From Marsupella aquatica (lineage: Eukaryota > Plantae > Marchantiophyta), in the NCBI GenBank assembly GCA_973895155.1, contig OZ316894.1:3868944-3932943 (forward strand): DNA of 64,000 nt, written 5' to 3'. A program made the translations under genes and the position numbers. The notes beneath the pieces were generated by a model, which searched no databases, was not told the DNA's origin, and was given only the letters and a program-made list of their open reading frames with translations. The stretch's first letter is position 1; the number at the start of each line of letters is the position of its first letter. Below are positions 4,521 through 59,174 of the stretch, in pieces.

Positions 4521-7500
4521 TCAAAGCATATCAATGTAGGACAGGGCCCGGGAGACCTTTTTGTTCTTGCCGCCGGAGCCTATTTTCCCAACAGCGGGAG
4601 AATTGGAGACTTGTTTCAAGCTTGTACGCGGGGAGGCTGACCTTTCAATTTTTTCAGATTTCGCCTTTGCACGATGACCTTGGATCACTGTAGAACGATT
4701 GCCCTTTGAGTTCGCTGTAGACGAAGCGCTATCAAGGCTAACTTCCCGAGCAAGTTTGTTCTGACTTTGAATGCGAGAAATTTCGCCCAGGTCATTTCCA
4801 GAGTTTGCTCTGGAAATTGAACTGTCACTGCTTCCGTCCCGCTCCAGGAGGCGTAGCACCTGCAAATGTTGCACAACAACAACACAAAAACCATCAAAAT
4901 TGTTCACTAATTTCAACAAACGTACACATGTCCGAGATAAAACGAGCTTGCTTCTTTACCTCGCTCATCCGCGGGCGCTGATCTGGATCTTTGCTGATGC
5001 AAAGTCCAGCTGCTTTAACCATCCTGTCAACTTGCTCGACATCGTAGTCTTTGAGACGGGGATCTACGATGTCCACAGTCTTACCGGCATGGATCATTGG
5101 CCGTGCCTGTCATTCAATAACAATAACAATTTAAGGAATGTGGAACATTCACCTTGCTTTGCAGCTCAGCTTCTAATTAGTATACTTCTGGGTTTAGTAT
5201 ACGTTTGCTTCAATCTGGGAAACTAACTCTCTACGCGCATCAGTAAGTGAAAGCGTACCCATTCTGTCAGGCACGTCTCTCCTCTTGCTCTTGTGGCGTC
5301 AATTGCCTTCCGTCCGGTGATAAGCTCTAGTAGAACGACACCGAAGGAATAGACATCAGCTTTCGCCGTGATGCTCCCGGTCTCTGCATATTCCGGAGCC
5401 AAGTAGCTGCATATCCAAAATGCTTCAATATTCAAACCGTGAAGCTTTAAATTGATGAAACTACAGCCCTAGATCTCAGCGTGCGAAACACTAGGCAGGA
5501 GTGTAGGGAAGATGTCAAGGACACCCTTGGTACTGTCAGCTGACAGAGTTGAAACGCAGTACATTAAGGGCGTAAGAGTTGTTTTAAAACCAATTAAACA
5601 TCACGCGGATCACTTAATTAAAGTGCTGAAATGGGCTAATGCATTCCTCACCCAAGCGTGCCGATGACTCGTGTTTCCTCAGCTTCAGCACCACTTAGTT
5701 GGCTTCTAGCCAGTCCGAAATCTCCCACCTGTAAATTAGCATTCATTTTTACAATTCTTCTAAGCCGCCGAGAGTTCACAAGATAATGGATTGAACCGGC
5801 TGCCCAGAAAAGACATCACACACTGGCAGAAACGATGGAGGATCCACGGCCATTTTTGTGAAACGCTATTGACACAATGAACAGGAACGGACGGATCTGA
5901 AGGACTCCGACTGCTTCTCATTACAAATCTGGGTTTCTAGTGAATCAACCTCTTACTTACGAGCCATTCATCTGTGAGCCTACTGTGCTCAAGTCAAGCC
6001 AAATTAAGTGAAATGAGAGAGATTAAAGTACGTGAATGAACGGGTAAGAAAGTGGTACCATGGGAACAAAATCATGCGTAAGTAGAATATTATTCGGTCG
6101 CATATCACGGTGCACAATGCAACCGACACGACACTCTTCGTGCAAGTATCTTAACCCCCGTGCCGCTCCAACAGCAATCGTCCACCTCCACTTCCATTGC
6201 AAGACGTTGACGTTTTTCGCTGCCACAGCCGAATTACAATCAGTGGGAGCTTAACTATTCTTGGTGGCAGCTCCTGAACTGTGTTCCAGTCCCGTACGTA
6301 TACTACTCCGCCAACGAACCATTTGTGATCCCACTTATTTCCCATTTTAGGATCTTGATTGATCATAGCTACATAACTGGGAAACCGTTTTGGGTATTTG
6401 AAACAGTCGTTACACTAACGAAAATTTAATGAATCGAACCCAACGAGTACACAGATCTTGGCATCCGTAGCGACCTTGTCAAGTTATTACTTTGAACTAC
6501 AATTGAGAGTATTAGTCACATCGGACGGTCTCATACTTAAACAGTCCGATGTGACGAAAGGGATTGAAGTAAATAAATTAATGATCAAACAAATTCTATC
6601 AGGTAACACGGATCACACCATGCATTTACTGCACAACGTAACATTGCAACAAAATGGCATCGGGAATGGCATTCTTCAAAATCATTGCTTGACTTCACAA
6701 TTCGTAAACGAGAGGAAACTGCTCGTACCTGAGAGGTGCACATCCAGAGACTTGTTGCAGACGAACTCGTAGACCAGCAAGCGCCTATCGTTTTCAGCGC
6801 AGTACCCGATGAGAATCACAAGATTTCGATGCTGAGCATGTTTCAGAACTTGAACCTCTGCGTCAAACTCATCGTCACCCTGAGAGCTTGCGGCCTTATA
6901 TTGCTTAACGGCGATTTCTTGGCCTCCTTCGAGTTTCCCCCGATACACGAACCCGTACCCACCTTCAGCTATGTAATTCTCCTGGTCAAAGTTATCGGTA
7001 GCTGCTTCCAGCTCAGCGTAGGTGAATTCTTTAGCGTCACAGCCAAATTTCGGACCCGGTTTTCTACAAACTGAACAGAGAGGAGCAATTGGCCGAGGGG
7101 TCTTCCTCTTGCCATGGTGAGAATTATCTAGTAAACGTCGATTGTCCTCATTTTGGCTCGCGACCTTGTTCACCCGTCCGATCGGATTGTTACTGAGATT
7201 TGGAGCCTGTGAGATGAGATCCTCTTCTTGGAGAGATCGCTGGAGGGTCCTCACGGATCTCGGAGTTGCAGAAGGTGTACTTGGAATGTAGTTCAGAATA
7301 TTTATCAGCTCATCACCGCCTCTGTCACCGAAGCTTCGTGGAGCAGGGCGATACAAAGTTGCAACCGAGGTGGTCTTTGGCACCAGCGATTGCAAGTCTC
7401 CGGTTGACATTGAAGGTCGGCCTGTAATTTTGTAGATATCATCCGTGGATGAAGTGCCAATAGAGCCAACCTTCACGGTGGGATTCAAAGTATCATCTTT

Positions 7501-10500
7501 AAACTCTGAACAAACCTTGTCCAATTCAGAGGATATCCCAGGTCCCGATTCACTCTGACGATCCCTATCTGAATCATTTGTCATTTCATCTCTTTTAGAA
7601 CCTGTTGAAGAGATGCCTTTTGCAGAAGAAATATCGGGATCTGAAAATTGTTCAGAGGCGACATCGAGCTCTAAAACTTCTGCCAGCGAAGGTGAGAAAC
7701 TTATGCAGGACAGATCTGTCCTGGCAGAATGCCCTTCAAGATGAATTTGTTCAGCGGTTTGAGCTGAGATATTCGTTTTGGAAAGCTGTTCAAGTAAGGA
7801 GGTGGAGGAGCTACATGGAGCAGAAGATGATATGCTGATTTGACTAAAACTTTTGGACACCTCTTTGTCAACAGTCTTAGCAATCATTATCTGAGCGTTA
7901 TCGCATGTTTGTTGGTAGTCACCCGCTGGACCCGCGCCACAATTTTGCTCCCGCGGAATTGAGTGCAGTACCGGTATATTCTTGGTATCCATCAGTACGA
8001 TATAGCAGTTGACCAATTGCTCCACAAGATAACTCTTGTCGTTTTTCAAATGCCTGCAAGAATCACATTAGAGCGGGGTTTCAACATGTAAAAACTTTTG
8101 TTATTTTTCTCTTTCTATTTTTCAGTGCATTAATTTCCTATACGCCCTCCCTTGACTATTATGCGAAGTATCACAAAAATAGGAAAAGTAAAACACAAAT
8201 ATAGTGTTGCCACATAAAATAACATAATACCTTGTATCAAAATCATGACATTTGTTTTTAACTTCTTTTTATGTCTTTGGCCAATTACAGGCCCTTTTGC
8301 TTAGATTTTCTATTCAAAGATTCATTTTTTCTTGTTTGCGAAAAATCATTCAAATTTTTATGCACATGAATGTACTAGTTACAGGCATTATGACCCTCAA
8401 AACTTGGGGTGCTGCCCTAGTTTTTCAGGGCATTATATCTCATAATGTCTTCTAACCAAGACATTATTCATAATCTTGTCAGTGTAACCAAACCTTTGAA
8501 CTTGTATTGTCACTCAGGGCATGAGTTAGTCAGGAAAGGCATCGGGGCAACGCCCCCAGCACCTAGTGCATGTGTAAGGTACATGCATACCAACAATTCC
8601 CACCTACATCCCAGTGGCAAGCCTAGTGAGATCTCTCGATCTTGATTCTAATTAGAGCGAGGTCTAACACAATTTTTAATGAACCAAATCTCAAAAAATA
8701 ATACAAGGTTACGCATTGTTAAAAAATGTTGTTTATTTATTTATATATCATATCTATCCATACACTCGATTTTAAATAAATGTTTACCCAAGTGTCCCTT
8801 TAGCCTCGGGCACCTGATGCTTGAGATAAAAAGACATCTCTTTCAAACCTCGACATTTTTTTTACGTTGACATTTTATCTTTTTATTATTTTGTCATTTT
8901 TTTGTCTTCTTTCTCACAACTACATTTTTCTCTCACTCTCTATATCTTTTCTCCTTTAAGTCTTTTACTCACGTTGTCATTTTTTCTTTCCTCAACATCT
9001 TACTCTCATTTGTTTCTTTTTCCATCTCATATCATCAGGGATGCCGAGCATTGTGTAAGACGATCCAGAAACTTACTTGTCTAGGAAAACCCATTTTGCT
9101 CCAAGCTCCACTGCTTGCCTTGCTGTCACCACTTTCCTGTCGGGCCCGGGGGCTATATGGACCAAAGGACTGATCTGCAGCGTTCACGTGCAAGATCCAA
9201 CGTGCAAGATCCAATGTTCAGGAAAATATTTTCTTCCTGCTGCATTGGGTGGCCAGAGAGCTGGCCATCATTCTTGACAAACAAGTGAATCACTTTTCCC
9301 TCCGTTTACAAATCTGAATCTGGAATTGTCCTCACAGTCTATTGAGATATATCCAAATCGTAAATAGGAGTTCGCGAAAGAGTTGTTTGGTGGGCTACCA
9401 TGAATCTCTTGTACATGACACACCCAGCAACTCCTGGGTCCCCTCTTCATCGACAAGTCTTATTGAAATCTAATGAACTCCTCTTATGTGACTCACCTGT
9501 GTCGAGGCAAAGAGCTTCTGAAGCTCGGGATCACTCTGAATGCCCTTTTCGAACTCGGCCACCTTCTTGCGTTGCTCCTCCACTATAACATGGTAAGTGG
9601 TCCCGTTGAATTGGGCACCTGCGTCGGCCTTTTGCTTGTATCCCACTGCAGGGTGCACAGACACAGACCATCACGACAGACCAAGCACTCTCCTAGCTTA
9701 GGAATCCCACCATGTCGGCAGCAGGAACACGATTTCAAAGAAACACTTCACATGCATCTTTGTCATGAATTCCACTTTTGATAAGAGGGACCGATCTCCC
9801 CTACCAAACTCTGTGAATCATGTCGAAAGTTCTATATATATTTAGTCATGTAATTAGGCAACCGGCCAGATCTCATATACTTCAGTCACATGTGACATTC
9901 TTTTGCTGCTGCCCCATGAAGGCAGCTAGAATTAGTGCAGGCCTTCGCAGTAGCTACAGTTTGCAAGGCGTAAACGTAGTACGCTCAGCCCACGCCCAGC
10001 TTTGGACTCTAACGTTGTCCTGGACCGGCAGGCTTCGGATTCGGCAGGCTTCGGATCTGGCAGAGTTTTTGCCAGAAGGTCATGATGGGCTAGGCATCTT
10101 TGTCGTTGTAATCTCCCCAGAAGTGTAGATGGGACAGAATCTACACGACTTGGCTTCGCTTCTTCTATATCGATCGGCCGTCCACTACAGTACTAGACAT
10201 TTTTGTTGCTTATCTGGAGGCTGCACACGGACTCCTAACCGGGAAGCAGAAACCGAAGCGACAGGTCTTCTGCCATATGGAGCAACAGGAAAGCAACAGC
10301 GTCATCATTCCTCGAGTTCTCCGGTAAGAGGAGATATAGACGGCGATCTTTTGTCGACTTACGAAGACGTCAAATGCAAAACAAAGAGAAAAGACCGCAA
10401 AGTATCTAGTGGGCCCAAAGACAAAATGGCTCGGGCCCACACCACGCCATGCAATAATTACATCATTCTACTCTCCCGGAATCTCAGCCGGTGTTTGTGA

Positions 10501-14601: not shown

Positions 14602-17177
14602 CCCTGGATAGAGCTCATTTTTTAATACAAATATATAGAAATCATGACAAAAAGCATACATGATTATCAATTGACATACATCATAGTCATAAGTTTTCTC
14701 ATCCCCATGATGAGCCATGGAGTTATGGTCTAGAGGCTTCACTCTCGAAGCCTAGGCCCCAACTCTAGTTTGTAGTTGGTGCTTTATATTAATAAGTAAA
14801 ATCTACAATCTTCAATAATCTTCCTTCTCACGGAAAGTGTTTCCTGTCGCCCTCACATTGTTTCAAGTCCCTTTCATTTTTTTGGGCTACTGATCCATAG
14901 TCTGTACCATATCCAATTTCTAAATGTGGGTTAATTACTGGATATTTTGTGACAGTAGTCCTAGGCTGGTTGAATGGGTTTGGATCCACAGTTGTTCCTA
15001 CTCACTTTGAACAGGAGGAGAAGATTGACTTGGACATTGGTTCCCATTATGTGACAAGTCAATACTGGTTAGCCTTGATGAGAAACCAATCAGAAAAGAT
15101 TGCCAATGGAGTAAAGTCTGGGTACCTAGCTCTCTCCACTCTTAGCTGGTCTGGCCTATTCGTAAATGGGAAGGAATGGCGTTGGAGTTTAGTCATTTGG
15201 GTTGCTGGTGCTCATGACATGTACTGTCCGTTCCCATTCATTCTCAGTATTCTGATATTGGAGCAGTGGCATTCTGGCCTTTGCGACTATGGCTTCCTCT
15301 AATTTGGACTCTCCCACAATTGCTCACGAGTATCCGTAGCTTGGCAGCTTGGTCGGCAGTATACCATTCCTCGTCGCCTGGCTCTCACCTATCGGTCTTT
15401 GGCTGCTGAGAAGCATCTCTGACTCGAGCTCTGACTCCTTCTGCTTGGAGACATCATAGAGATATTTTACGAAGCCAGGGGAAGTGGTGGGTCCGGAGGG
15501 GAATAAATTTTACCCTCGGTCGTTTCTTCCTCATATGGGACACCCTCAGTAGTCCTTTTTCAGTCCCAGCTGGGGGAAACTGTTCTCGGCCATCTGGATG
15601 CGAAGCATGGTAGAGTTGGAAGATTTTGTCTGACTGATGTTCCCTTATTTCAAGGATACAGCAGTTAGGGACCCGGTTAGGGAGTATTGGCCTTCGTTGC
15701 AGTCTACCTAGCTGGTCCGGAAGGGTATCCCCATTTTGATAATGCAAGTTTGTGGTGGGATATAGCGACTGGTTGTTGGATTTAACGGGATGGATGGCAG
15801 ATGCTGGAAATTCTTGGGTTATGTGACATGGTCAGCAGGCGGCATTTGGAGTTGGTGGTGATTGGCAGCCAAGGGAGAATGGAGTTTGCTTGTTGCCCAA
15901 TTGCTTTCTTGGGTGTTTCCCTTTTAGATGGCTGCTTTTGGATGCCCGTTTGGATGTATGGGCTACTTTAGGCATATAGTATCCTGGGGTTCCTCCTTCC
16001 CTCTTTTTCTGCCCTCCTCTTGGCAGTCTGGGTGGTGGTTCCCATCGTCATATCTCTGGGATGCCCCTTCTCCTTGCCCCCCTTAATTGCTTGTTTTCTT
16101 TCTCTGTCTCCTACTATCAAGCAGTATTCATTGTTTTTGCCTTGGGTGTCCCACGTCTTCCTTGTTTTGGTCTTGGGCGCCCCTCTGGAATAAAGTTTCA
16201 GGGCTTGGCCCTTTCCCATTTAAAGACTAAAATTAGGTTAGCCTTAGCCTAACGCGGCCCCTTTCTCCGTTGCAGGGTACATTCAGGAGTTGCAGGTACA
16301 GGAGGGGAAAAAAACTTCTTTTTTTGGCTCCATATCACGCACAAAGTTTTGGGGGAATAAACACCCTAAAATTTAAGTCAATAAAGTTTTTTTTAAGAAT
16401 TGTTTTAGCCCTAAATTAATGGAATATTCTAAGAATATTCCCAAATTTGATTTTAAAAAACCCTACGATTCTTACAATTCTCAAAATTGGATTAAAATAA
16501 CCCTAATGTTCTTCAACAAAAATTTAAAAGTATTTCACTAAACCCAAAACACAATTTCGGACCGAACGAGAACTATTTCCTCTAAACGAGAAGTGTATTT
16601 TCATTTTCCGCCGAATCTCGCAAAATCGGCAGTTTTTTTCATCAAAAACACGTTTTTGGGGAAATAATGTAATTCGTATTGGAGTTCGGATTGAAACAGC
16701 AAATTTAATAATGATCAAAACCAATGAAATTCATGCTAACAAACATTCATATTATCAAGGAACAATTAGATCCGAAAAACTTTCTCCTCAACCTCATATT
16801 CACGCTCTCTGAAGATATATGAAAGGTCTTATCTATAAATCCATATCCACGTTTCGAGCCAAGTGTGATAACTGTATCGGACTCCGGATTTGAGCCATGA
16901 AAGCTCCGACCTAATCTCAGTTTTCTCAGTTTTTGGATATTTACCAAAAATATTTTACATCACAGTCGATAAGAATTACTGCACGGTTCGTCAAACTTAC
17001 CTTGCAGTTACCTCCGCAATTGACCAGTTACCTCCGCAAGTGACCATAGTCAACATGCCATTCTTTCAACAGCAATGCGCAGTCCGATAAAATTATCATG
17101 AAAACTACGGGCGACAAAAATACTAGTCGACAATACTAAGATCCTTCGGTTCATCGGTTAAATTTCAAAATTCCTAT

Positions 17178-17381
17178 CCATATGAAGAAAACTCTTCGCA
17201 ATACCAACATCAGATAAATTTATCGCTTCAATTTCAAAATTGCAACTTCCATATGAAGGAACCACTTTTGCAATACCAACATCAGATAAATTTATTGCTT
17301 CAATTTCAAATTGCAACTTCCATATGAAGGAACCACTTTTGCAATACCAACATCAGATAAATTTATCGCTTCAATTTCAAA
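17178..17381. repeat. ~72-bp tandem repeat (~2.8 copies), each unit carrying (A)GATAAATTTATCG
   Basis: Motif copies at 17212, 17284 and 17355. Confidence 0.9.
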
Positions 17382-17515
17382 ACTATATAATTTTGCCACG
17401 ATGCACGTGTGAGAATGAAATTGGAAATCCAAGAAATATACCCTTTTCTGCTATTTTGTCGTTTAGGGTGACAGCCAATCAAAAGTGGACACGTGGGCCA
17501 ACCCCTCAACAAACA

Positions 17516-17524
17516 CTATAAAAG
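17516..17524 (+). promoter_or_regulatory. Candidate TATA box of the transposase gene
   Basis: CTATAAAAG about 120-150 bp upstream of the ATGs at 17638 and 17668, preceded by a CACGTG G-box at about 17490. Confidence 0.45.
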
Positions 17525-17637
17525 GGCCACCGCCGATAAGTTTTTGGCGTCATTATCGAGAGTAGAGTTTTGGGAGTTGTGTTCTTGGAGCAACATTCTG
17601 TCCGTTGAGCCTTTCATTTTCCCTGATTGCGGGAGGA

Positions 17638-20600
17638 ATGCAAAGCCCCATAGTGTCTCGGATAGCCATGTCTCAATCAAACACAGATTCACCTTCCAAT
17701 TCAGTTGAATCCTCTCCTTCCAGTTCAGTTGAATCCTCTCCTAATCTTGTCGCTCGCTGTTTGCCAAGTCGCATACTTAAAGCTCTACCTCTCTCACAGC
17801 AAATAGTGCCCGAAATCTCTGACTCAGATTCTGATGCAAGTTCTGGTCCTGAGCCCAGTGCTTACTATGTGTCGCCTAGTAAACCTGAGAAGCGTCGTCT
17901 CTTGAGCGTTCCATTGCCAAGAAATGAGAAACTTTCAATCCCAGGTTTAGGTCCGAGACGTCGCTTCAGGCCATCCATCCCAGGTTATGGAGAGGGTATC
18001 CGACGACCGATACGCGTATCGTAGTCAGCATTCAAGTCGCCACATTCAACACAAGTTCAACGACGGATCTTTCAGTCTCTGGGTGAGGATCGGGACACAT
18101 AAATACAAAGACCGATACGGCGATCGGTCTTTGCATTGCCTGGACTGGATGTGCGAGCAAGTGAGGGAATCGGACTGCGAAGTCCAGACTCGGCCCTTTC
18201 TCGAATGGTCCGTGGGAATCGTGGTGAACAAGTGCTCAATTTTCCAGCAGCTCGCGGAGTCGTTGGGACTGCACGTGCGAATCCAGAATCTCTAAGTTCT
18301 CAAGGGCGGACTGTCATTGGTTCCAGGCTCCAAGTATCAAGGAGAGGTCTTAGTGGCGTTCGGGTTATGTATAGAGAGCCACGGAGTCCAATTGTGTTTT
18401 CAGATGAGTCAAGTGCATCGGAGGACGAAGATGAGGAAGGAGATAGAGAATCCGATATAACAGCACAAGTTGTGTCTGAATGTTTAGAAGGAGCTATCGA
18501 AGAGAATAGTTATAGTCGTCTATTCAGTGCCCCTCTAAATGCGTCAAGGAGATCTATAGAGGATGGTAGCTCAGCAGAGAGTGATGCATCTATTCGCGAG
18601 GCACCTGAAGGACCAGAAAATGCCAATGTTATGAATGGATTTCAAGCTGTAGAGAAGTCAAATGAGCCTAGTAAAAAAGATAGGGACCGAATTACTAGGA
18701 AAGACAATGTGATAAATGACAAATTGAATAGAAACAAAATGAGAGAAATTCATAAGTATTCGTGTTGTGATAATTACTGTCTGAGGAATTTGGGTCTGCT
18801 AGTCGTGACGAAACAACGCACTTATTACTATGGGCTATCCTACCCAGAGAAGAACGTCCTTCTAAGAGGATGTGTGAAGGGTGGGCTTGCTGGTGCAAGT
18901 GGTTACTCAGTTAGCGGTAGATCCTTTTGTCGGAGTGGTTTTAAGAAATTATTTTCACTAGGAAATAATCGTCTCCAAAAAATCTCGTAGAACATGTTTT
19001 CTCGGATACAGATCGGTATAGTTTGTCGAGAAAAATCACCCGCACATCTTGGTCTCGTCCAATGGCTGGATGATTTTTTTTCCACAAATGTCGAGAGTCT
19101 CCCCAACAAGGATATCTTTCATTTACCTGACAATTGGACAAAAATAGAAGTTTTTGATGCCTTCGAGTCCGAAACTCTAATGCGCCAAGAACAAGGCATG
19201 ACATATTCGTGGTTTGTTCGCATTTGGAACAAGGAGTTTCCTCACGTGCGCATCCCCAAAAGGAGCCATTTCTCCACCTGCGCCCCGTGTACTGAATTCA
19301 AAGCACTCCGTGACAAGACAAGACTCGAAGCAGAAAAGAGTAAGTTTCTAAACCTGTGTGTTACTCCCGATAATTTTATCGGGTTGAGTATTCATGTGCT
19401 TCTTCTTTGGCCATGTGAGTGAATATATCGTTTGAACAGTTTGAATACTGAACCTGATAAATTTATCGCTATCACAATTTTTCATTACGGTCTTGTGTTT
19501 GAATACTGAACCCGATAAATTTATCATTGTCAGGGTTTATCATTACGGTCTCGTGTTTGAATACTGAACCCGATAAATTTATCGCTGTCAGGGTTCAACA
19601 TTGCGGTTATCATGTTTTGTCCTAAACATTTTTATTATTGTAGGAAAATTCTCAACATTGCTAAACAAGCATCGGAAGGCACAAGCAGTCGAGAGGGAGA
19701 AGTTAGCAAAGCACCGAAGCAAATGTTACAAGAGTCTGGAGAAATATTTGGGCATCTGTATTGATGGAATGGATCAAAAGACGACAGAGTTACCTCATTT
19801 CATTCGGTGTCCGAAGAATATGGATGAAAAGTATTTCATCCCCGTACACGTAGTGGGTTGTTTGATCTTCAACAAACAATTAAGTTCAAATGTTTTTTTG
19901 AACTATCCAAATATTCACAATGATAGCAACCTGACCATCCACGTTATCCAGCATATTCTGAATACCTGGGAAGGTCTGCTCCCTCCAGTGCTTTACCTCC
20001 AGCTTGATAACACAACTCGGGAAAACAAGAATAAATATCTTATGGCATATTTGAATATGTTGGTGGAGATAGGTGTTTTCCAGAAAATAAAGGTTGGTTT
20101 CCTATTGGTGGGGCACACCCATGATCAAATTGATCAAATGTTTAGCAAGTTTTCTTCAAAATTGAACAAGCGGAAAGCTTTCGGGTTGGACACTATTTCA
20201 GCAATCATAGAGGAATCCTACAATCCTACGGCAAAGATATTTTTCGTCGACGAGGTTGCCGATTTCAAGAAATTTGTGTCAGACAAGGATCAAGCAAATG
20301 ACAAGGATATGGATGGTTAGGTTCTACGTACTCTCCATAGCATAAGTGCTCAAAAACAATTTCGGATTACTAGAGTACTCGAAGATGGAAGTGCTCGGTC
20401 CGTATTCCATGCCAAACATCTTTCAACGACAACCAATTGGGGGGAGACGGTGGATTTTGTTCGGTACATTCCATCATCTGGAATGTGGGTCGCACCACAA
20501 ATGGCATTGAAGTCGGCCACGGGAGCGACAGGAGACAATGAAGAGCAAGAGAATGATGCTGAGGAACAAGATGAGCGGGCGGCTCAAAGTTATTTGTCAA

Positions 20601-21253
20601 CTCTTCAAAAATATCGAAGAGCAATTGAAGATGGATTCAATTACTTTGACGACGAAGATCGTCTATGGTGGGGTCATTTTTTTGACAAACAAAAAGAAGT
20701 GATTCAGCACCACCTGAAACCTGCACAATGGAATTTTGATTGGAGTTGGCCCAAGGTAAACGTACAGAGAGAACTTCCGAGTAATCCTACGGAAGCAGCA
20801 ATGGAACCTAGCTTGGTTGATAAAGTAGCGGGTGTGAGGACAGTCATGTATTCCGGAAGTCGAATAAAAGTCACAGAAATTGGAGACTTCAAGGATCTAG
20901 AGGTGAATACTAAATTTGCAATGATATGTGTAGCAGCCCATCAGGATCCCAAGGGAAGACCATTCTGGATGGCAAAAGTGACTGAGATTCTCACAAGAAT
21001 TAACGACATCCCGGAGCGGATTAAAATCACTTGGTATGCAATGGATTCGGAGGAAGAGTCTGCAATTGAAGGCAGATATTATCCGGAGAAAGAGGCTTCG
21101 TCTAGCAAAGTACTAGAGGATGAATTGTCCCTAGCAGAAACTGTTGTTTATGCGTATAACTTTGCGTTATTGGCAAATAGTACTATCCCTATACAAATAA
21201 GACGAATCATTCAAAATGCAATGGAGACTGTAGTCATTGATAGTCGAAGCTAG
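17638..21253 (+). pseudogene. Sola-like DDD transposase (DUF7869-like from memory) with C-terminal BAH/Tudor-like domain; four in-frame stops
   Basis: One reading frame plus a phase-1 intron at 19340-19643. Motifs CCDNYC, FCRSGFKKLFSLG, FSTCAPC, ICIDGMDQ, LQLDNTTRENKN, VGHTHDQIDQMFS. Stops TAG 18022, TAA 18100, TAG 18988 and TAG 20318, with no frameshift. Confidence 0.85.
19436..19612. repeat. 58-bp tandem repeat (3 copies) inside the transposase intron, each with the 14-bp palindrome
   Basis: Motif copies at 19455, 19513 and 19571. Confidence 0.9.
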
Positions 21254-21584
21254 TTGTAGGTTTAAGTTATAATGGTTATCGTTCCCATGAATATGTACAG
21301 TGGTTATCGTTCTGGGACTATGTACTCCGCAGCTATAATGATATCTTGTTTTTTGAAATAATTGCAATGACAAACCAGTTAGAGCATACAATGCTAAGTC
21401 CGATAAGATTATCGACAACTCCATTCCCCCAGCTAGAACACCGCGATAGTCCGATATATGCAAAGTCCGAAAAATTTATCGCATTAATAAAGGTGACAAA
21501 GGTTCTTCCTCATGGAATACAGAATCCGATAAATTTATCGACAACTCCATTGGTGATTGACATTATCCTAACGAGCACACGCAA

Positions 21585-24500
21585 CTAATCTAATAACATG
21601 TCGTTGAGATCATCCTCATTTGGTGTTCTGGGAGGCTCTTCCTCAGTTTCTTCTTGTTCCTCTTTGGTCTCCTTCACGACCTCAACTACGTAAGTCGATG
21701 TCCCGAGAACACCCAATTGGCCTACAATTGGTGGTTGAATCTCATGACCTTCAACGCCATGCCCTTCAATCTGGGATTCTTCATATAAATTCCAGTTTGA
21801 CTCCAGAATCACGATCTGGGATTTCACAAAATCAATCTGCGCAGAACTCTTATCAACAGCACAACCCTGGCGAGAATTGAGGAGCGTAGCAGCTAATGTC
21901 GATCCAGTTCCACAACAAAGATCAATAACCCAATCCTCTTTCTCAGAGTAATGGGAAACAAACCAAGCCCCCAAACCAACAGGCTTCTGATACGGGTTCA
22001 CAACAAATCCCAACGGATCAACGGACTTCTTGGTTACACATGGAACCTTGATGATATTGACGCGAGACTCATCCGGTTGGAAATTGTACATGTCCATGTT
22101 CCGAATGCCTTCCTCGCTATAGAAACCTATCGACCAGTTCTCAAAACCCCACGCCAATCGAGCTCCAGCGGGACGCTCATGAATGTTAGTCTTCTCCCAG
22201 ATTCCAGCCTTGACCCCACAGTTGCATACACTCTCCAGTGTAGACATCACCATATGCGTTTGTTGTAGTGAATGGAACACAACAAACCTCCACTGCTTAG
22301 CGGTCGTCATCTTTGAGAAACTTGTCAACATGTCTAAAATGTCCTTTTCTGTGAATGCTACTTCATCAAACTCCGAACCAGGAGCATTAAAACCATACGG
22401 AATATCCGCAACCGCAAGGGTGTAAGCCCTTGGCTGAACAAAAGAATCCAAAATTTGAACATCACCAACATGGAGATAGTAGGGAAAAGAATCCCCGTCT
22501 GTATTTTCCCATGTTTGTTCAAACGCTTCTGCTGTGCCCTCGCCTAAGGACCTCAGCCGATTGTACTTATCGATTGCAGCAAGCACAAAATTCTTAAACA
22601 CATAAGGGATTTCAGTTGAGGGAACAATAACCTCCCCACAGAATTATAAGTGACAGCCGGAACCACTTTGCTTTTCCTTTTTGAATTAATCTTCAGCTGT
22701 AAAAATGTCAGACACATCTACAGTTAGAATAGCGTGAGATGAATGCTAAAGCCGATAAAAATCTCGCGATGGAGCACGCTAGCCGATAGATGGAATCGCT
22801 TAGAAACCAACAAAGGAATGCTAAAGCCGATAAAAATCTTGCGATGGAGCACGCTAGCTGATAGATGCAATCGCTTAGAAACCAACAAAGGAATGCTAAA
22901 GCCGATAAAAATCTTGCGATGGAGCACGCTAGCTGATAGATGCAATCGCTTAGAAACCACAAAGGAATGCTAAAGCTGATAAAAATCTCGCGATAGAGCA
23001 TGCTGTGAGAGGAATGCTTACCGCGTCACTCAATTTCTCCGCCCATATGCCAAGGACCGAGACATCTGTTTCGTTGGGAAACATTTCTCTGCATGTTGCC
23101 CAATCTGGCTGACCAGATATCTGCAAAAATAGTTTCTTCACCTTGGCAAGCTTTTTCAACTTCTCACCTTCCTTGTGCATTTGATCCAAAGTGATCACCT
23201 TCCTGATAACCCTATTCAAGAGACGCTTGACATGCTCCTTATTTGACAGTCCTTGGAGACCTCGAAATGAATTTAAGTTGAGGTCACCAGCAAGTTTATT
23301 CATTTTAATCTCCCTTACCATCAAAGGTTTTACCTTTCCCTTTGCGTTCGTCGTTGCCACAATTTTTTTGGGTTGTCCTAAGACAATACCTTTCTCCCAC
23401 ATCTGGAAAATCTGCTCCTGAAGATCCCAAATTTCACCTGTTCGGAAAGCAATTTGGAAAGCCGGATCATGTTTGGCCATGGAGTCACGAACTCCTGGCG
23501 TGTACTCCATCATGCATTCTTGACAACATGCTTCGCGGACATCTTTAGTCGAGCCCACACCCATTTCAAGAAAAATATTGTGACAAGTGCGAACTTGGTC
23601 AATTTTAGTCATGTTCTTCCAATACTCCTGGTCATAGTTATGCTGGAAGCCTAACTTTCGGACCTCGGATCTCGTAAGCCCAGCGTAAACCCAAGCTTCC
23701 AGCTCACCATATATTTGCTTCCCGTACATTTTAAACAACTCGGACTTTGCCCGAGCACCATGATTCCCTCCAATAATTCTATACTTCCATACCCTTGACT
23801 TCAGGATGTCCCAATCTGCGGTTGTGGGACAATCCTTCGGATCCACACACAGCACGAATGGGGCACTGAAGTTGGTGGGGTTTTTCATGAGAAGTATCTT
23901 GATATTTTCCACATGCAATCTATCCACTGGTCTAATCAAAGTTGACAAATCCCCCTCCTCATCAAATATGAGATTGTCGACATGCAGAAGCACAGTTGTC
24001 CTTTGCACCCTTCGTTGCATCAGAAGACTGAGCTCTGCCTTTATCGCGTCCGTCTCATACATCGAAAGAGCCATCTCCTCCTCCTGATCAACCTACAAAA
24101 GCATTGCAAATTCAATTAAGGAAAGAAACTGCGAGATTTTTATCGGAGTTCACATTTGTTCAACATAACTCCACAATCCGCAATTCAGGAAATAAACAAC
24201 GAGATTTTTCTCGGATTTCGTATTTGTTAAACAGTACAACGACGTAGTACTTACCAATGGCGCCGCAGAAACCGCGATTGGAACTGATGGAATTGACGGA
24301 GCTCTATCTACTTCTACAGCCACTATCTCAGTCCAACCAATACTCTTCCTCTTTGTGCTAAGTCCAGAACCAGATGGCCTGGATCCCTCGGATTCTTTAC
24401 TTTTGCTTGGTTTAACAGATGGTCCTCGACGGTTGCCCCGGCCTCTCCCACTACCGCCAGTTTCCTGGCTCTTTTTCCCAACGTCAGAGGTTCCCGCGGC

Positions 24501-25223
24501 ATCTCCCCTGCCGCTACCTCTCCCTTTCCCTCTTCCACTTCCCGAAACCCGACCAGAAGTTGTAGGTTCGTCCACGTCAATATGTGTAGAGGATTGCAAT
24601 GGTTCTTTTCGCCCCGATATTTTATCGGCATTAGAACCACCGCTGCCACTTGAACCTGGTTTCTTGAAAACAATTTTGCGGACAGGTTTGAACTCTTCAC
24701 CCACAAGTCTCTTGTACTCTGCGTTCACCCTTGGAAGCATGATGGCATCACAATCTTGCACATACTGGCCGATCCAAGCCGAACCCATAACATTCATCTC
24801 TCTTGTTGCCCAAACTTCGGCAACAAGGGGATCTTCTGGATAACTGTCTATCGATTTCTCATCAAAGTTATCGAGAGTAACAATGAGAGATGTGAAACCC
24901 TTGCGCCCACACATTGTCAAGAAACTAAGGCCCTCTGTCAACACTTTTCCCTCCCCGTGGCCAACCATGAACTCGACGATGGCAACAACAATGACAGGGC
25001 CATACGAAACATTAACCTTCGCCGATTTTTGCAACTGGACCCAAAGGATTGGGGTAGCACAATCTTCGAAACCCGTGGACTGTAATCTGGCGTCACGGAA
25101 GTACCATGACTTCTTGATACACTTGACCTCTTCACAAATGTCTTCACTCGTCCAAATTGCATTGGTGAGGCTTGTCATGAGACTTTCTGCCTCAGCAGAT
25201 CCACTCTTTCCACTAGCAGCCAT
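21585..25223 (-). CDS. Spliced ParB/Srx-like domain + beta-class DNA amino-methyltransferase (N6_N4_Mtase-like)
   Basis: Exons 25223-24255 and 24092-23022 join in phase 0 with GT-AG sites; the last exon ends at 21585. ParB-like motif YRIIGGNHGARA. MTase motif IV LAVADIPYG comes before NPYQKP and motif I VIDLCCGTGS, which is the beta permutation. The last junction needs either a weak GAG acceptor at about 22632 or a 1-nt frameshift at about 22634 after the acceptor at about 22697. Confidence 0.8.
22741..23002. repeat. 75-bp tandem repeat (~3.5 copies) in the intron between the ParB-like and MTase exons
   Basis: The unit contains CGATAAAAATCT(C/T)G at 22753, 22828, 22903 and 22977. Confidence 0.9.
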
Positions 25224-25422
25224 GGCAAAGTTTGCAAATAAACAAATTCCAATGCAAAGAGCGATAAAATTATCACCGCCAATCTCACAGCACATGTGGA
25301 CATGACATCTCATCACACAAGGACAAAGAGACCCGCAATGCAAATGACCGATAAAATTATCACAAAAGTGAGCCTTCTTTAAATTGACAGCCGAGTGTAC
25401 AGGTCGAAGAATCAGCTACGGA

Positions 25423-25462
25423 ACCCTAAATCCAAAACCTTAACCCCTAAACCTAACCCTAA
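25423..25462. repeat. Degenerate telomere-like (telobox) CCCTAAA tract
   Basis: aaccctaaatccaaaaccttaacccctaaacctaaccctaa, about 200 bp upstream of the ParB-MTase ATG. Confidence 0.6.
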
Positions 25463-25719
25463 TCATAGTTGAACCTCGCCAGAGCGAAGCGTTCGATCCG
25501 CTTCTTGGGCCATTGGGGAATATGAGTGACGCGATGATCATAAGCCCACAGCGAATGGAAATCAACTTCACCAGTCTCAGGATTCACTACTGCTATTGAA
25601 TACCGGCGTGACGAAATGCCACAACAAGCATTTGTGCAGCATGGACAGATCTCACCATTGGCAAGGACGTTCGTCCACAGGCAACTTACATAGATCAAGT
25701 TAAAGAGCGCACAGACCGG

Positions 25720-26172
25720 CTAGGGGGGGAGTTGACGAATCTTGTATGAATATAGTTTCCCACTAGTGTCAATAAAAAACTCGGTGGCAAGAGGATTGTC
25801 CAGCTCATCAATCACATCCTGAATCTCATCGAATGCTCTACGTCTGTTGTCGACATAGAATTTTGGCTCATAAGCAGGATTGCCCTTCACAACATGACAG
25901 CAGTGGAGTATAAAACGTCTTACTGCACCGGTTTTCAAAAAGAGTAGGATAACTCTTCTAGAAAATCCAACATATCTATCCCACCGAATATAAATTTCTC
26001 CCCCTACCTGATCTACGTAGAAGTGAAATGCGCTATGGTAAAACGGTTTTACTACCAGCCTGCATATCTTTAAAATTAGTGACTCATCCAGCCTCCTTAG
26101 CTGGTCCAGCATGGCTCCATTCCCCCATTCTGGAGGATCCAAGTAGGGTACAAAAATGCGTCGCTCGAGCAT
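25720..26172 (-). CDS. Transposon cargo ORF, 150 aa, unknown function
   Basis: ATG-initiated ORF with globular composition, co-oriented with the other cargo ORFs. No recognisable motif. Confidence 0.45.
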   Translation of the reverse strand: MLERRIFVPYLDPPEWGNGAMLDQLRRLDESLILKICRLVVKPFYHSAFHFYVDQVGGEIYIRWDRYVGFSRRVILLFLKTGAVRRFILHCCHVVKGNPAYEPKFYVDNRRRAFDEIQDVIDELDNPLATEFFIDTSGKLYSYKIRQLPP

Positions 26173-26487
26173 GGCCTGATCACCGAATAGAAATCAGGAA
26201 TAAATTTTGGAGAACATACTAATTACAATTCTACAAGTTTCATCCAACTTTACAGTACCTTGTATAACGGGCTGTGAAGCCAATGCACTTGTCAGCTAAT
26301 CGTCCGAAGAGGCGCAAACAAATACACTCTGGACCACACAACCCGAAGTCAGGGGAGGCAAAGTCAATTACATTCAAAGTGTTTCTTTACAAGCTCTTCT
26401 CGAGCAAACCTTAGAGCACCCAAAATCGACTAGAGGAATGAGGAGTGCGATAAATTTATCGGATGTTCGCAGCAATGCCTCATCCAC

Positions 26488-27036
26488 TCAGACTCGTCCA
26501 TGCCATGCAAGAATTGTCCGCTTCCCGCTTTCTCCAAGATTTATCCAAACTCTACGAAACTGATCTAACTGCTCATACGAAAAGCACCCAAGCATATCTA
26601 TGGGAGGGAGGAAATGAGTTTCCTCTCGGAAGACCCTAGCAATATGTATGTTTGAGAGAAGGTCGGCATTAGGAATGCTTGCGAGCATTTTGTTTATGTC
26701 ATTGATCTCACGGACTGCATATTTCAATAGTGCCCAAAATCGTGTACCAACAACAAGATGGTTCCATTTCTTTGAGGTGGCTCCAAGACAAATGATTGTT
26801 CTCATTCGAGTCAGTCGTTCTTCTGGTAGAAGTTTTAGGTCAAGGCCAAGGTGTTCATCTTGTATGCAAGACAAGGCTAGGAGGGGCCAAATGTGAGATT
26901 CAACGAGTTGATCGGGAAGTCCATTCAACAAACTTCCGCATTCCACACCGGGCACTTTTCCTCGAATATATTTCCTACGCTCGTGGGCTACAACGGATCC
27001 CATCTTTGCAATGATTAGATTCTCAGACGCAGCCAT
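26488..27036 (-). CDS. Transposon cargo ORF, 182 aa, F-box-like
   Basis: LLNGLPDQLVESHIWPLL…ICLGATSKKWNHLV matches the F-box pattern LPxxL…I…L…VSKxW, with an insertion. The ATG context is gccATG on the coding strand. Confidence 0.55.
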   Translation of the reverse strand: MAASENLIIAKMGSVVAHERRKYIRGKVPGVECGSLLNGLPDQLVESHIWPLLALSCIQDEHLGLDLKLLPEERLTRMRTIICLGATSKKWNHLVVGTRFWALLKYAVREINDINKMLASIPNADLLSNIHIARVFREETHFLPPIDMLGCFSYEQLDQFRRVWINLGESGKRTILAWHGRV

Positions 27037-27230
27037 GAAGCAGAGCTACCAAAACTACCAATAAAAATACCTTCAATCACCAGGTGTAACCGAACACATC
27101 CACAGTACCAACCCTGCACGACAATTTAACGATTAGGACTTGTGATGTATTATATTCGCTACGCAAGGGTAGGACTTGTTTATTTAAATATGTCCTTACA
27201 AGACGCGCCTCAATGCAAAGGTCAAAACAC

Positions 27231-27560
27231 TCATCGTGAAAGGTTCATCCAAGGGTCTTCGTTCCAAATCTTACAACAGAAGTGAGCCTGTTTGTGGTAC
27301 TTGTTGCCAAGACGACGACAACAATAGTTACAAGAAAACTCCAAAGAATGTAAACACGTCGTTAACATCAACCTCGAACGAATTGGAACTCCTGCATCAT
27401 TCATTCCACAGAATTCAATGCGAAGAGGATTCTGCCTATCTCCAGGATCAGTACCACCCATCCACAATGCTCCTATACCGATGGGGAGAACTTTGAGTCG
27501 CACGAGTCTCTTGTACAACCGGCGTGCACGTTTGACACAATTTTCAAGGAAGATAGCCAT
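27231..27560 (-). CDS. Transposon cargo ORF, 109 aa, Cys/His-rich C-terminus
   Basis: CLHSLEFSCNYCCRRLGNKYHKQAHFCC could bind metal. No family recognised. Confidence 0.35.
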   Translation of the reverse strand: MAIFLENCVKRARRLYKRLVRLKVLPIGIGALWMGGTDPGDRQNPLRIEFCGMNDAGVPIRSRLMLTTCLHSLEFSCNYCCRRLGNKYHKQAHFCCKIWNEDPWMNLSR

Positions 27561-28152
27561 TTGTCACAATACCTGTTGTCCACGGAGTGCAATCGACCTT
27601 CCGTTGTGCCTCCTAAACCCAGCAACACTGCGACATCAGAGATGAAGATGAGTCTCCAAACAAAACAAAGGAAAGTGATTCTCACAGGAGGATGCGATAA
27701 GTTTATCGAACTCCGCATTCAAATTGAAAATATGACTTCCTCAGACACCTAAGCCCTGAATTCAATCTTTCACAAAAATGACAACTCCGATAAATTTATC
27801 GGATTCTCAATTACTCCTCTTTCCATGAAAGGAATGAAGACTCCAATAAATTTATTGGAATGAAGGCAACACCTCTCTAAACACTGGATCAAATGGTTGC
27901 AACAGAGGAATGCAGAATGCGATAAATTTATCGCAGTCCGCTCGGATCTGGACATTTTACACTAAATGACTAGTTAGTCTTACATGGAGAACTTGAACAG
28001 GAATGGCTGTTCCGATAAATTTATCGGGTTTTCGGTAGAAAGAGTCGAATCCCTTGGGAGGAATGTAAGACTCGATGGGAGTTTGGTATTCGCTCAGTCA
28101 GGAGATATTTGCTCTGGCGAAAGCAAACGTTTTATGGGCAGCCCGCTTCCTC

Positions 28153-28226
28153 TTTATATAGGAGATGCTCTAAACCATGGTTAATTTCCCCTTAACCATG
28201 GTTAAGTTTCCCCTTTACCTGGGTTA
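28153..28226 (-). promoter_or_regulatory. Candidate promoter for the minus-strand cargo cluster
   Basis: TATATAAAG on the minus strand at about 28153-28161, preceded by three ~20-bp repeats containing the palindrome TAACCATGGTTA (28171-28226). Confidence 0.4.
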
Positions 28227-29376
28227 GTGCGTGGTCGTTCCTGGATTACGCGGTTCGGACCAAGTTACTCGCAGTTCGGACTTTTTCACTGACGGAATGT
28301 AAAACCCGATGCACGTATCGCTCCCTGCATTCCCGCGGTGATGCAATGGAGGAAAGTGGCGTTTCGGAGAGTTTTTGCCAGTTTTATCGGTCATTGCATT
28401 GCCTTAGAAAAAAACGAGATCGGGCTAAACGAGAACTCCGACACACTTCTCGGTCGGTCCAAAATCGTGTTCCAATAAAAAAACTTTAAATTTATTCGCG
28501 CGTTATGGGTTGGACGAAAAGAAGTGAGGGACCCCGGGGGTTCCTTTGTCCGCTTTGAATGTCTTTCACCTACATATGCTAGTGCTGTACTACAGTGTTC
28601 ACCACAAGTAGCCTCGATAACATTAATTATTTGTGCAGCCTAATGTTATTGGGTTTACTTTTCAATTAACCCTGCAATTAACATAATATTAATTATGGAC
28701 TAACACTAATAGTGCAGAGTCACATTAAGTAACACATTAAGCGTAACACTTCAGGACTCCTTTGTGTTTAACACGATTTGGAGAGGTAGGGTACCGGCAA
28801 TACTAATTCTGTTTATGCCTAACATATTTGGAGATTTTGCTTGGAGGGTCACATTTCAAAGTCTACTACCTCATACAAGCAATAGTCACAGGGTTCCAAT
28901 GCACAGACTGATAGAAAAAGCATTGTTCTCTCACCTTTGACAGCTACATGTAGGGAACAAAGTGTGTTTCACACACCCAAGATGATTAAAAAAATAAAAG
29001 GTATTGTTAGAGAACAGACTCTCAACAGGGCTACAGTACTTGCCAAAAATTGCTAGGCAGCACAAATCAGGAGTAGGAGGACAAATGTGAACTACACACT
29101 CAGGGAATTCCAACCCTGAATAGTCTTTAGTTAGAGCAAAAACCCACCACATTTAGTGTTATCTTCTAGAATTACTAACATTATTAGGGACTAATACTGA
29201 TTCCGAGATAAGACTAATTTGAGTGAACAAGGAACGTTTGTATTCTCAAGATAAAGATGTATGCGCATTAACTCCAAGATTGCATTATTTGCTCAACATC
29301 CTATAGCCATATTGCTAGATATTTCAGCAAAAACAATTCTCCAAAGCTAACATTCGAGTGTGCATTACCTTACTAC

Positions 29377-30639: not shown

Positions 30640-32290
30640 GATGCACTCTGGGAGAATCAATCCAACTCTACCCCCGAGTTGCCACGGCTGATTGGGAGCT
30701 AGGAGGAACCTAGGAAGGAGCAGATGTACATGTTGCTGAGGCTGGCCGTTCCTGCAATTCAACCCAAAGATCAATTCAACAACGACAAGGAGACGAGAGT
30801 GATGAGGGAAGGTTACGATATTAATATGGCCAACAACTGATCACCTAGTGGACTGGAATCGTCTTCGAGTATCTGTGTGTTTTGTTTTGTTCCTGAACGA
30901 AAAGGTCGTCCCACTGTTTCTCATCAAGCCGCCGGCCTGCATTGTTCTGGCTGCAAACCCCTTGTTGACGGTCCGCCCAGTCGGCTGGCTGTGATCGAGT
31001 GTACACCGAGGCACCGCAGTCGCCCATTCCAAAAACCTCTCGGCCGTCCTGGCTCCGGCTCTCCCTTCCATCCCAAGTAACGCTACCGCCGCTGAGTGAT
31101 ATTGCTGCAGCTTCTTCTGTCTTTCGAGTTCAAGGAGGACCTCGGTCCGCAGCCAGAGAGGCTCTTCGGTGATGCTGTTGTTGATGCCACTTTGGTACTG
31201 ATGGACAGCGTTTCAGAAATTAACACGTCATGCGGTTCAGCTAATTCTCCGTGATTCACATCGTTCTAGCTTTGTCAAGTCCGCTTTGAAGTGGTTCGTG
31301 GCCGTTCGATTTGCTAATGATTCTGCTAGGTGATGGCTTAATCCAGTTCTCAGTTTGATGTATATATAATCAAGCACCTGAAGTGATTGGAAGGGCAAGA
31401 AGGAAACATCGTTGGAAAAGATTGAAATCTGAGGAGCCAGGTGGTACGTATTTTTTTTGGCAGATCTTTCTCGCCGTGACAGGATTCGTTCTTTTTGCGG
31501 CTCGATCAGATCTGAACACCTCTCCAGTTTGAGAGCTGGAGGATTAATGACAGCAACTCATGTGACCAGCATTCCCACAGGAATATCAGCAACTGCGTGA
31601 TCGAGCTGCTAACCGGCACGATCAACTCGAGACTTTCCTTAGTCATCCTGGGCACGGATATATATGATTCTTGGGCACCAAAATATTTGATTCTTGACAA
31701 GTATAAGGTAGCACGCCGTAGTAGCTGCAGGATCCATGTGAAGGAGTATGTAATTGCTGGATTGCGCTGCCTTCGACATTTCTTTGAGGAACACTCGGAA
31801 GTTAAATTAATTTATCGTTCCAATAAAGACTGTGTTCAGATTCTGTCCAAAGTAAACAACTTCGATGACCAATTCCTTTTCGAGAGATGTAATTGAAGTA
31901 CTATTATCGTCGGAAATGTGTGCGATAGACAGAAAGAGTAGACGTGACTTGGTACCAGAAGCATTCGGTTTCCATACTGCAGCCAAAAGATGACGAAGCC
32001 GCATGTAATGCCACATATTGATTCTCTTCTTGAAAGCTGATATCAGTGGTGAACATGAATAGATGCTCAGTCTGGAGCCAATGTAGATGAGACCATCCTG
32101 CACTACTTTTGGATCTGCAGGCTCAAACTGAAAGGCGGCCCTCCATTCGCAATCAGAGGCACTGCTTCTGACCCTGAAATTGGCAAGAGCTGTTAAATGC
32201 AACAGCTGCAGCCCATGGAAAACTTGAGTATGAGGCAGTATTGTTTTTGTTGGCAAACATTTGCCAGGCTATTTGCCGATCCTAGATGAA
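30640..32290. repeat. Inverted segmental duplicate of about 52020-55040
   Basis: Collinear reverse-complement blocks: 30660-31200 vs 54500-55030, 31690-31850 vs 53875-54030, and 32180-32272 vs 52024-52115. Confidence 0.85.
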
Positions 32291-32896: not shown

Positions 32897-33201
32897 CCCG
32901 GGGTCCTCACTTCTTTTCTTCCGACCCATCATGCGCGAATAAGTATAGGGTTTTGTTATTGGGTTTAGTGAAATATTTTTAAATTTTTGTTGAAGAACAT
33001 TAGGGTTATTTTAATCTAATTTTAAGAATTATAAGAATCATTGGGTTTTTGAAATCAAATATGAGAATATTCTTGGAATATTCCATTAAGTTAGGGGTGA
33101 AAATTTACCAAAAAAAACTTTATTGACTTAACTTTTAGGGTGTTTATTCCCCCAAAACTTCGAGCGTGATATGGGACACCCCTTGAATTGAGGCCCCCGA
33201 G
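32897..33201 (+). mobile_element. Intact family-A MITE, 305 bp, 8-bp TSD
   Basis: Ends CCCGGGGTCCTCA / TGAGGCCCCCGAG. TSD CTTCCCAT at 32889-32896 and 33202-33209. Confidence 0.9.
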
Positions 33202-46776: not shown

Positions 46777-46824
46777 TCACGGGGGAAGAAGAGGAAGGAA
46801 TCCGCCACTGCATCCGGGTTACCG

Positions 46825-58877: not shown

Positions 58878-59174
58878 CTCGGGGGTCTCACTACATGGGG
58901 ACCTCCCCATCACCTGCAACGTTTTTAGGCCATGGGCCCCCTAAAATGTAAGAATTTTATTTTATTTTTTAACCCCTATAAAGTTGGAATATTCTTGGAA
59001 TATTCCAAAAATTGAATTAAAAAGGCCCTAATGTTCTTATAAGTCTCAAAATTGAATTTGAAAGACCCTATTGTTCTTTTACAAAAATTCTTAAGTCTTC
59101 CCTTACAACCAATAAAATGACCCTATCCTTCGTCGCACGTGATATGCCATTTTTGTGGAAGTGAAACCCCCGAG
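58878..59174 (-). mobile_element. Intact family-B MITE, 297 bp, 8-bp TSD
   Basis: TIR CTCGGGGGT(C/T)TCACT. TSD CTAAAGTC at 58870-58877 and 59175-59182. Confidence 0.93.

Follow-up and report, generated by a model that had tools for sequence, protein, structure and literature searches.

Which protein would read a 14-bp palindrome that a plant transposon repeats about 20 times through its non-coding DNA? The question is raised by 64,000 nucleotides of the liverwort Marsupella aquatica (assembly GCA_973895155.1, contig OZ316894.1, positions 3,868,944 to 3,932,943), a stretch called the window throughout. It holds a multicopy DNA transposon with a DUF7869 transposase gene and, convergent to it, an accessory gene predicted to encode a ParB-fold/DNA-methyltransferase protein (Table 1). 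The original prediction, made from the letters of the window, had taken the palindromes as recognition or loading sites for a dimeric protein of the element, most attractively this one. We show here that the sites are confined to the transposon, have a two-part geometry and change their core between subfamilies, and that the accessory gene encodes two recognisable folds. The cis-element is real, highly non-random and family-wide, and the transposon that holds it carries an enzyme of an unusual kind as cargo. From this we infer the binder and the outcome: the sites are probably bound by the ParB-fold/methyltransferase protein, and this protein would mark the element that encodes it, or regulate it.

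A two-part site in the non-coding DNA of the element

The repeated 14-mer is a perfect palindrome. With up to two mismatches allowed, the window held 20 matches, against a shuffle mean of 0.12 (largest value 1 in 100 shuffles), and 19 of them fell within 17085-28026. All copies first listed were recovered at their positions: the six perfect ones (19571, 21527, 26448, 27788, 27920 and 28013), the 13 with one or two mismatches, and the further variants at 22753, 22828, 22903, 22977, 24132 and 24200.

The site is longer than the 14-mer. Direct-repeat families with AATGC or AATAC at a constant distance from the palindrome gave the first sign of an outer arm, and the whole can be written as the skeleton AAT-N8-CGAK-N6-MTCG, with an AAT arm at fixed distance on one or both sides. 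AAT was found at -11 to -9 in 30 of 58 window half-sites, and in 0-4 half-sites at each of six neighbouring offsets. By this two-part definition the window element carries 29 sites, namely 27 of the 33 matches of the skeleton scan (armed, or with a near-consensus core) and two two-mismatch copies from the 14-mer scan; the six skeleton matches left out are unarmed or coding, and chance-like. Six sites have both arms, 18 have one and five have none. The wider definition adds four sites (16866, 18008, 18113 and 28307). The element contains 24 armed dyads, compared with a shuffle mean of 0.59 (maximum 3), and the 51.8 kb outside it contain no perfect skeleton match and one armed match with one mismatch. 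The claim that no full copy lies elsewhere in the 64 kb had overlooked a two-mismatch match at 46176, outside the element; there is no AAT arm in its flanks. Beyond 14 nt, the flanks of 20 non-tandem sites are unrelated (mean identity 0.26), and the dispersed sites are therefore not duplicated segments.

By location, three predicted introns hold 10 sites, other non-coding DNA holds 17, and two fall in open reading frames (ORFs) at the transposase gene's 5' end. The three introns total 775 bp; the four exons that have homologs, 4787 bp in all, contain no site. Restriction to non-coding DNA, as originally described, thus applies to the 27 sites outside mapped reading frames; those at 18008 and 18113 are either embedded in coding sequence or part of an intron that was not recognised. 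Eighteen of the 29 sites are internal, and sites cluster within ~0.2-1 kb of both ends of the element.

Related elements keep the architecture and change the core

A metagenome scan with the methyltransferase alignment alone retrieved five related elements, L001 to L005. All come from one assembly; they are distinct elements, not independent samples. The arm had been seen in the window first and these loci were retrieved afterwards. As far as the loci reach, gene order is that of the window element. The alignment found no related loci in viral contigs or prokaryote genomes, nor did P0166. Separately, 26 viral loci matched the armed window core, but with one armed dyad each and a match to neither protein profile, and were put down to chance.

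None of the five contains the window 14-mer within three mismatches. Each has instead a repeated dyad of its own, placed in introns and in untranslated and intergenic DNA: CGATCCAAACATCG in L001, CGATACCCGTCTCG in L002 and CGAGACNNGTCTCG in L003-L005. All five retain CGAK-N6-MTCG, with the AAT arm at an unchanged offset. Armed dyads number 20, 5, 16, 7 and 6 in L001 to L005, versus shuffle means of 0.08-0.22; of the six in L005, one has a single mismatch and lies in coding DNA. AAT stands at the conserved offset in 21/42, 5/12, 29/32, 12/14 and 8/10 half-sites, respectively. The window core occurs at 13 places in the window and nowhere in L001-L005, the L001 core at 20 places in L001 and nowhere else, and L002-L005 have a common core. 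Methyltransferase identity is 0.73-0.87 among L002-L005 and 0.54-0.66 for pairs that include the window element or L001. The core tracks methyltransferase identity, as it would if motif and protein changed together in subfamilies; with six elements, shared descent explains this equally.

The geometry also bears on the nature of the recognised molecule. The L001 site is polar: 19 of its 21 copies have the arm on one and the same half, and the copies run in both orientations (13 and 8). Mixed orientation, and the finding that in all six elements a site's own arms pair no better than shuffled half-sites, together favour recognition of duplex DNA by a protein. On this ground a hairpin reading of the repeats was rejected.

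The accessory gene encodes ParB-fold and methyltransferase domains

Three predicted exons on the minus strand make up the accessory gene (Table 1). The ParB-like and methyltransferase identities first proposed hold up, both as folds. The best Foldseek matches of the second exon were Noc, ParB and KorB (E from 1.8e-4), and superposition on a ParB structure gave a Z score of 9.6 and a root-mean-square deviation of 2.0 over 95 residues, with serine kinase and sulfiredoxin within 1 Z. The third-exon model is nearest to CcrM (E 9.6e-13), M.BceJIV and M1.HpyAVI. Its PF01555 (N6_N4_Mtase) match (E 1.8e-5, below the curated cut-off) is the sole above-noise Pfam match of the accessory ORFs. D[IV]PY is intact in all six elements, ahead of DLCCGTG, which is present in five. 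Domain structure alone leaves the target base of such enzymes, adenine N6 or cytosine N4, unfixed (PMC8885841). The conserved domain of the first exon is matched in L001 and L003 by equally placed counterparts of 31-33% identity; no homolog was found in Pfam, PHROG, a protein database by word search, or Atlas.

The exons are joined by predicted introns with GT-AG ends. P0011 reads from the ParB part across the junction into the methyltransferase part, and distant relatives carry the two domains on a single chain. Splice signals, together with these fused proteins, point to one protein of ~1050 amino acids. A profile search returned 341 relatives at E <=0.001. An N6_N4_Mtase match was present in 11 of 47 long or mid-length relatives, and both domains lie in one polypeptide in records from Chara, Riccia and Ginkgo and in a cluster with a Holothuria member. 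Among the relatives named (20 of the 150 listed were looked up) are also Adiantum, Haliotis, Actinia, Ptychodera, Branchiostoma and Clastostelium. With the single proteins as queries, the PDB gave weak sequence matches only, and profile A3 retrieved only methyltransferases. Several of the distant ParB-like relatives P0133, P0093, P0138, P0186, P0139 and P0163 are animal and one is amoebozoan; P0133 has a weak Tudor-like match and P0093 a SAM domain. These six are possibly domesticated or chromatin-linked forms.

The best language-model matches of the ParB-like exon were fungal DUF3723 clusters (score 0.94-0.96), and DUF3723 may itself have a ParB fold. For no protein scanned did the Pfam families shown include PF12520.

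Which protein binds the sites?

That the palindromes are recognition sites for an element-encoded protein is favoured by their confinement, their absence from homologous exons, their occurrence in both orientations, the lack of hairpin pairing, and an architecture that stays constant while the core changes. Since the core changes from one subfamily to the next, an element-encoded protein is favoured over a host factor. A host transcription factor, for instance of the GATA type and reading GATA or GATC, might have found its sites amassed by the element as enhancers, since the window and L001 cores contain GATA or GATC, and in L001 and L003 sites come after TATA-like boxes, which they flank in the window; we regard this as improbable, because the half-sites of L004 and L005 are all GAG (14/14 and 10/10), the core varies between elements while the distant AAT stays fixed, and the host DNA of the window lacks a perfect skeleton match. 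Less credible still is that the repeats are RNA hairpins, cruciforms, recombination sites or neutral by-products of local tandem duplication. Some sites of L003-L005 do resemble inverted repeats of ~18 bp, and several site clusters are local tandem units of 58-75 bp; against this stand the pairing and orientation data above, the unrelated distal flanks, the absence of any Rfam match in 16000-29000, and a spacing constant to the base across elements that are 54-87% identical in protein.

Within the element, the transposase is the binder that the original prediction named as its alternative. Bound to the internal sites, it would regulate transcription or aid synapsis, leaving another role to the ParB-methyltransferase. 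Bipartite sites suit transposases with two DNA-binding modules, the sites cluster towards both ends, and the transposase diverges with the element. The AtMu1 transposase is reported to bind and activate its own family, but at terminal repeats common to non-autonomous elements (bioRxiv 10.64898/2026.08.24.746577). Five short non-autonomous elements in the window have the same ends as the transposon and contain no armed half-site. The sites are therefore not part of the ends kept there, which, with most sites being internal, weakens the transposase as binder and makes this explanation unlikely. A further product of the element, one of three minus-strand ORFs (25720-27563) or the first exon expressed alone, could be the binder, in the role that VANC has in VANDAL; VANC is an accessory protein of this sort (PMC5735166), and the ORFs carry no assigned function. 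We consider this quite improbable: Pfam and PHROG gave no DNA-binding signature in these ORFs, and they matched none of L001-L005, whose contigs may end too early. With a host factor disfavoured and the transposase weakened, the accessory ParB-methyltransferase protein is left as the candidate binder.

How this protein might work can be outlined. ParB and methyltransferase domain families read palindromes and act as dimers. A dimer of the accessory protein would read the 14-bp dyad through the helical region that follows the ParB domain, and the tethered methyltransferase would modify a base at a fixed distance, most simply an adenine of the AAT arm. Many sites could then give element-wide, subfamily-specific marking, by which the element would stay transcribable against host silencing by 5-methylcytosine (5mC). 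KorB-like repression or autoregulation would be an alternative outcome at the same sites. Sliding driven by cytidine triphosphate (CTP) is unlikely in the canonical form known from ParABS.

Several observations weigh against binding and marking by the ParB-methyltransferase. The motifs for CTP binding and hydrolysis in ParB are GERR and ENLQR (PMC8494293). As had been cautioned from the GNH motif, the alignment has GNHG in place of GERR, and also QHNY or QHNI in place of ENLQR, which makes parS-type CTP loading less likely than was hoped; across relatives the former motif reads NHG (32), NHS (15), NHT (7) and NHR (3). A DNA-binding domain is not firmly placed in the accessory protein: in the model the predicted local distance difference test score is <50 over residues 235-306, helical-region matches have Z <=3.5, and the HTH_ParB matches, in 3 of 10 relatives, are weak (E 0.04-0.09, below cut-off). 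Transposases can themselves be sequence-specific activators (bioRxiv 10.64898/2026.08.24.746577). Shared descent, in six elements of which five come from one assembly, accounts for the match of core and protein no less well than co-evolution, and the match would extend to the transposase too. The general skeleton was derived from the same sequences, so that its shuffle statistics are post hoc. Finally, among the differences from the family majority listed (40 of 56), 23 of 27 of the C>T type lie in CG or CHG context, although CG/CHG cytosines are 541 of the 1605 cytosines of the stretch compared, and at the CG of the site itself 12 of 15 changes are to TG or CA. Judged by this 5mC-type decay, the window copy was methylated by the host, and any protection would therefore be incomplete. 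CpG observed/expected is 0.84 in the element versus 0.68 and 0.54 in the flanks; youth of the element explains this equally, and we do not use it as support.

The transposon, its copies and the neighbouring DNA

The right terminus of the element is CCCGGG at 28538. At the left, the outermost ~30 bp are missing or replaced in the window copy; other copies have a CTCGGGGG-type end before 16330, absent here. Depth of single contigs inside the element was 465-520 in public run X1, against 13-15 in unique flanks, and 760-1320 in run X2, against 33-34, which suggests roughly 25-40 close copies, a rough figure. One of these runs may come from the same source as the window. The window copy is aged: the transposase has in-frame stops at 18988-18990 and 20318-20320, and a frameshift lies near 22633. 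Other copies differ at 20318 and at 22633, where most of the X1 depth and part of the X2 depth carry one extra base.

The five short elements begin with C(T/C)CGGGG and lie at 29377-~29700, 32897-33201, 43041-43337, 51121/51152-51726 and 58878-59174. Target duplications of 8 bp are perfect in two of the four that could be delimited and imperfect in the other two. Of these, 51152-51726 forms a near-palindrome (~575 bp), and a second left terminus lies at 51121.

DUF7869 is the sole Pfam match of the transposase ORFs. VANDAL elements have a MuDR-type transposase, an assignment that this match does not support. The transposase has the motifs DGMD, LDN and GHTHDQID (at 19763, 20003 and 20111). Transposase motifs presumably resemble those of Sola; that superfamily makes 4-bp target duplications, and the 8-bp duplications of the short elements led us to reject it. 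hAT and Zisupton/KDZ elements duplicate 8 bp, and were set aside too, as the element ORFs gave no hAT/KDZ-type Pfam match at E 0.05.

The minus-strand ORF at 26488-27045 has an F-box-like start, judged by eye only; with its two neighbours it may form a second accessory gene behind a TATA-like box at 28161. Upstream of the accessory gene, telobox-like AAACCCTA variants cluster at 25420-25465.

Elsewhere in the window there are two host-type genes: a receptor-like kinase exon (6682-8067, minus strand), closest to FERONIA and SYMRK and indicating a land-plant host, and a RING-variant domain (55697-56251, minus strand). Two other repeat families form pairs that are 72-76% identical (30868-32023 with 53682-54838; 54860-55930 with 62766-63860), and a 157-bp tandem array occupies 50317-50760. 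For the ORFs at 39972-44804 and 46198-48029, Pfam returned nothing above cut-off.

Table 1. Features of the transposon, its sites and two short relatives (window coordinates)
Feature	Coordinates	Strand	Remarks
Multicopy DNA transposon, ~12.2 kb	16330..28538		Terminus common with short elements; contig depth high inside, at flank level outside
Five sites	16866..17368		Upstream of transposase gene; 16866, 17085, and 71-bp tandem unit at 17212, 17284, 17355
DUF7869 transposase gene	17638..21253	+	PF25273, E 1.6e-49; predicted intron 19340-19643 with GT/AG ends; 5' exon structure and start provisional
Two armed sites, GC-rich centres	18008..18126		In ORFs at 5' end of transposase gene; 18008, 18113
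Four sites	19368..19584		Predicted transposase intron; 19368, and 58-bp tandem unit at 19455, 19513, 19571
Three sites	21401..21540		Between convergent 3' ends of both genes; 21401, 21468, 21527
Accessory gene, predicted third exon	21588..22696	-	Beta-class N6/N4 DNA methyltransferase; DIPY, then DLCCGTG; frameshifted near 22633 in window copy
Four sites	22753..22990		Predicted ParB-methyltransferase intron 22697-23021; 75-bp tandem unit
Accessory gene, predicted second exon	23022..24092	-	ParB/Srx-fold domain with GGNHG motif, then helical regions, possibly DNA-binding
Two sites	24132..24213		Predicted intron 24093-24254
Accessory gene, predicted first coding exon	24255..25223	-	Conserved domain of ~190 amino acids, family not known, and low-complexity linker
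Two sites	25262..25362		Directly upstream of predicted start of accessory gene
Three further ORFs	25720..27563	-	25720-26193, 26488-27045, 27231-27563; no Pfam or PHROG match
One perfect site	26448..26461		Between two minus-strand ORFs
Six sites near right end	27695..28320		27695, 27788, 27844, 27920, 28013, 28307; surround minus-strand TATA-like box at 28161
Short non-autonomous element from both ends of the transposon's family	32897..33201		Perfect 8-bp target duplication; no site
Related short element	58878..59174		Perfect 8-bp target duplication; no site

Significance and comparison with known systems

To our knowledge, few transposon anti-silencing systems have been described. For VANC, the step after binding is left open in the account available (PMC5735166). 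The candidate effector here is an enzyme with predictable chemistry, and its target sites are long, rare and already listed, which makes binding and modification directly testable. If the proposed reading is true, a jumping gene would have a new way to mark and regulate its own DNA, with transposon-written N6-methyladenine (6mA) or N4-methylcytosine (4mC) at defined positions in a land-plant genome; it would suggest a route by which hosts gained amino-methyltransferases, and would supply natural site-protein pairs of differing specificity for targeted epigenetic marking. It would be categorically new if the enzyme were shown to write a mark at these sites.

The plasmid protein KorB has dispersed operators and represses its own gene. 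As in ParB/parS, Noc/NBS and KorB, a ParB N-terminal fold is here followed by helical domains, and dispersed palindromic sites of similar length lie on the same element. Unlike in these systems, the protein is predicted to be fused to a methyltransferase, the gene has predicted spliceosomal introns, and the sites have outer arms. ParB/parS differs further in its GERR and ENLQR motifs, not kept here, and in its ParA partner, of which a Pfam scan of 12 element ORFs found no relative.

In permuted motif order and fold, the methyltransferase is like CcrM, M.BceJIV, M.RsrI, N4CMT of rotifers and MpDN4MT1 of Marchantia. The last two are reported with an SPPY catalytic motif (PMC8885841; bioRxiv 10.1101/2021.02.12.428880), unlike the D[IV]PY found here; they are host-domesticated, whereas the present enzyme is borne by a multicopy transposon, and its predicted fusion partner is a ParB fold in place of a chromodomain. 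Eukaryotic N6-adenine methyltransferases have been tied to mobile elements or ParB before, as a DIRS1 domain, as Dam of chlorophytes and chytrids with a helix-turn-helix of the ParB kind, and as clades derived from phage ParB-terminase loci (PMC4738411). These resemble our case as ParB-linked or transposon-borne adenine methyltransferase domains in eukaryotes, but the DIRS1 domain is described as likely inactive and chlorophyte Dam belongs to another structural group; the available part of that survey describes neither a plant transposon of the cut-and-paste type nor cognate DNA sites. A literature search by title and start of abstract, with most subscription journals and Repbase entries outside its scope, returned no description of a transposon-borne ParB-methyltransferase with cognate sites.

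DUF3723 is a conserved cargo gene of unknown function in fungal Starship elements, which move by a tyrosine recombinase, unlike the present transposon (PMC9156397). Cargo status and the language-model resemblance of the ParB-like exon make it a lead only. More broadly, and tentatively, there could exist a widespread eukaryotic transposon lineage with its own bacterial-type modification system, in which a ParB-fold methyltransferase would act on dozens of parS-like sites of its own element and write 6mA or 4mC at a fixed distance against host silencing, site and protein diverging together. Its members or domesticated offshoots might be the streptophyte algal, liverwort, fern, gymnosperm, amoebozoan and marine-animal relatives, and possibly Starship DUF3723.

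The closest parallel in cis-architecture is VANDAL/VANC of Arabidopsis, where short motifs lie in intronic, intergenic and terminal non-coding DNA, partly in tandem, and differ between related families (PMC5735166). Both are DNA transposons with an accessory gene and with non-coding, tandem-amplified target motifs that differ between related families. The transposase here is of the DUF7869 type, so the element is akin to VANDAL in this architecture but is not a VANDAL. The VANC motif, as reported, has 8-9 bp and is asymmetric; the site described here is a 14-bp dyad which, with its fixed AAT arms, extends to ~36 bp. Unlike VANC, the effector proposed here is an enzyme, a ParB-fold methyltransferase of prokaryote type, which is predicted to add a mark.

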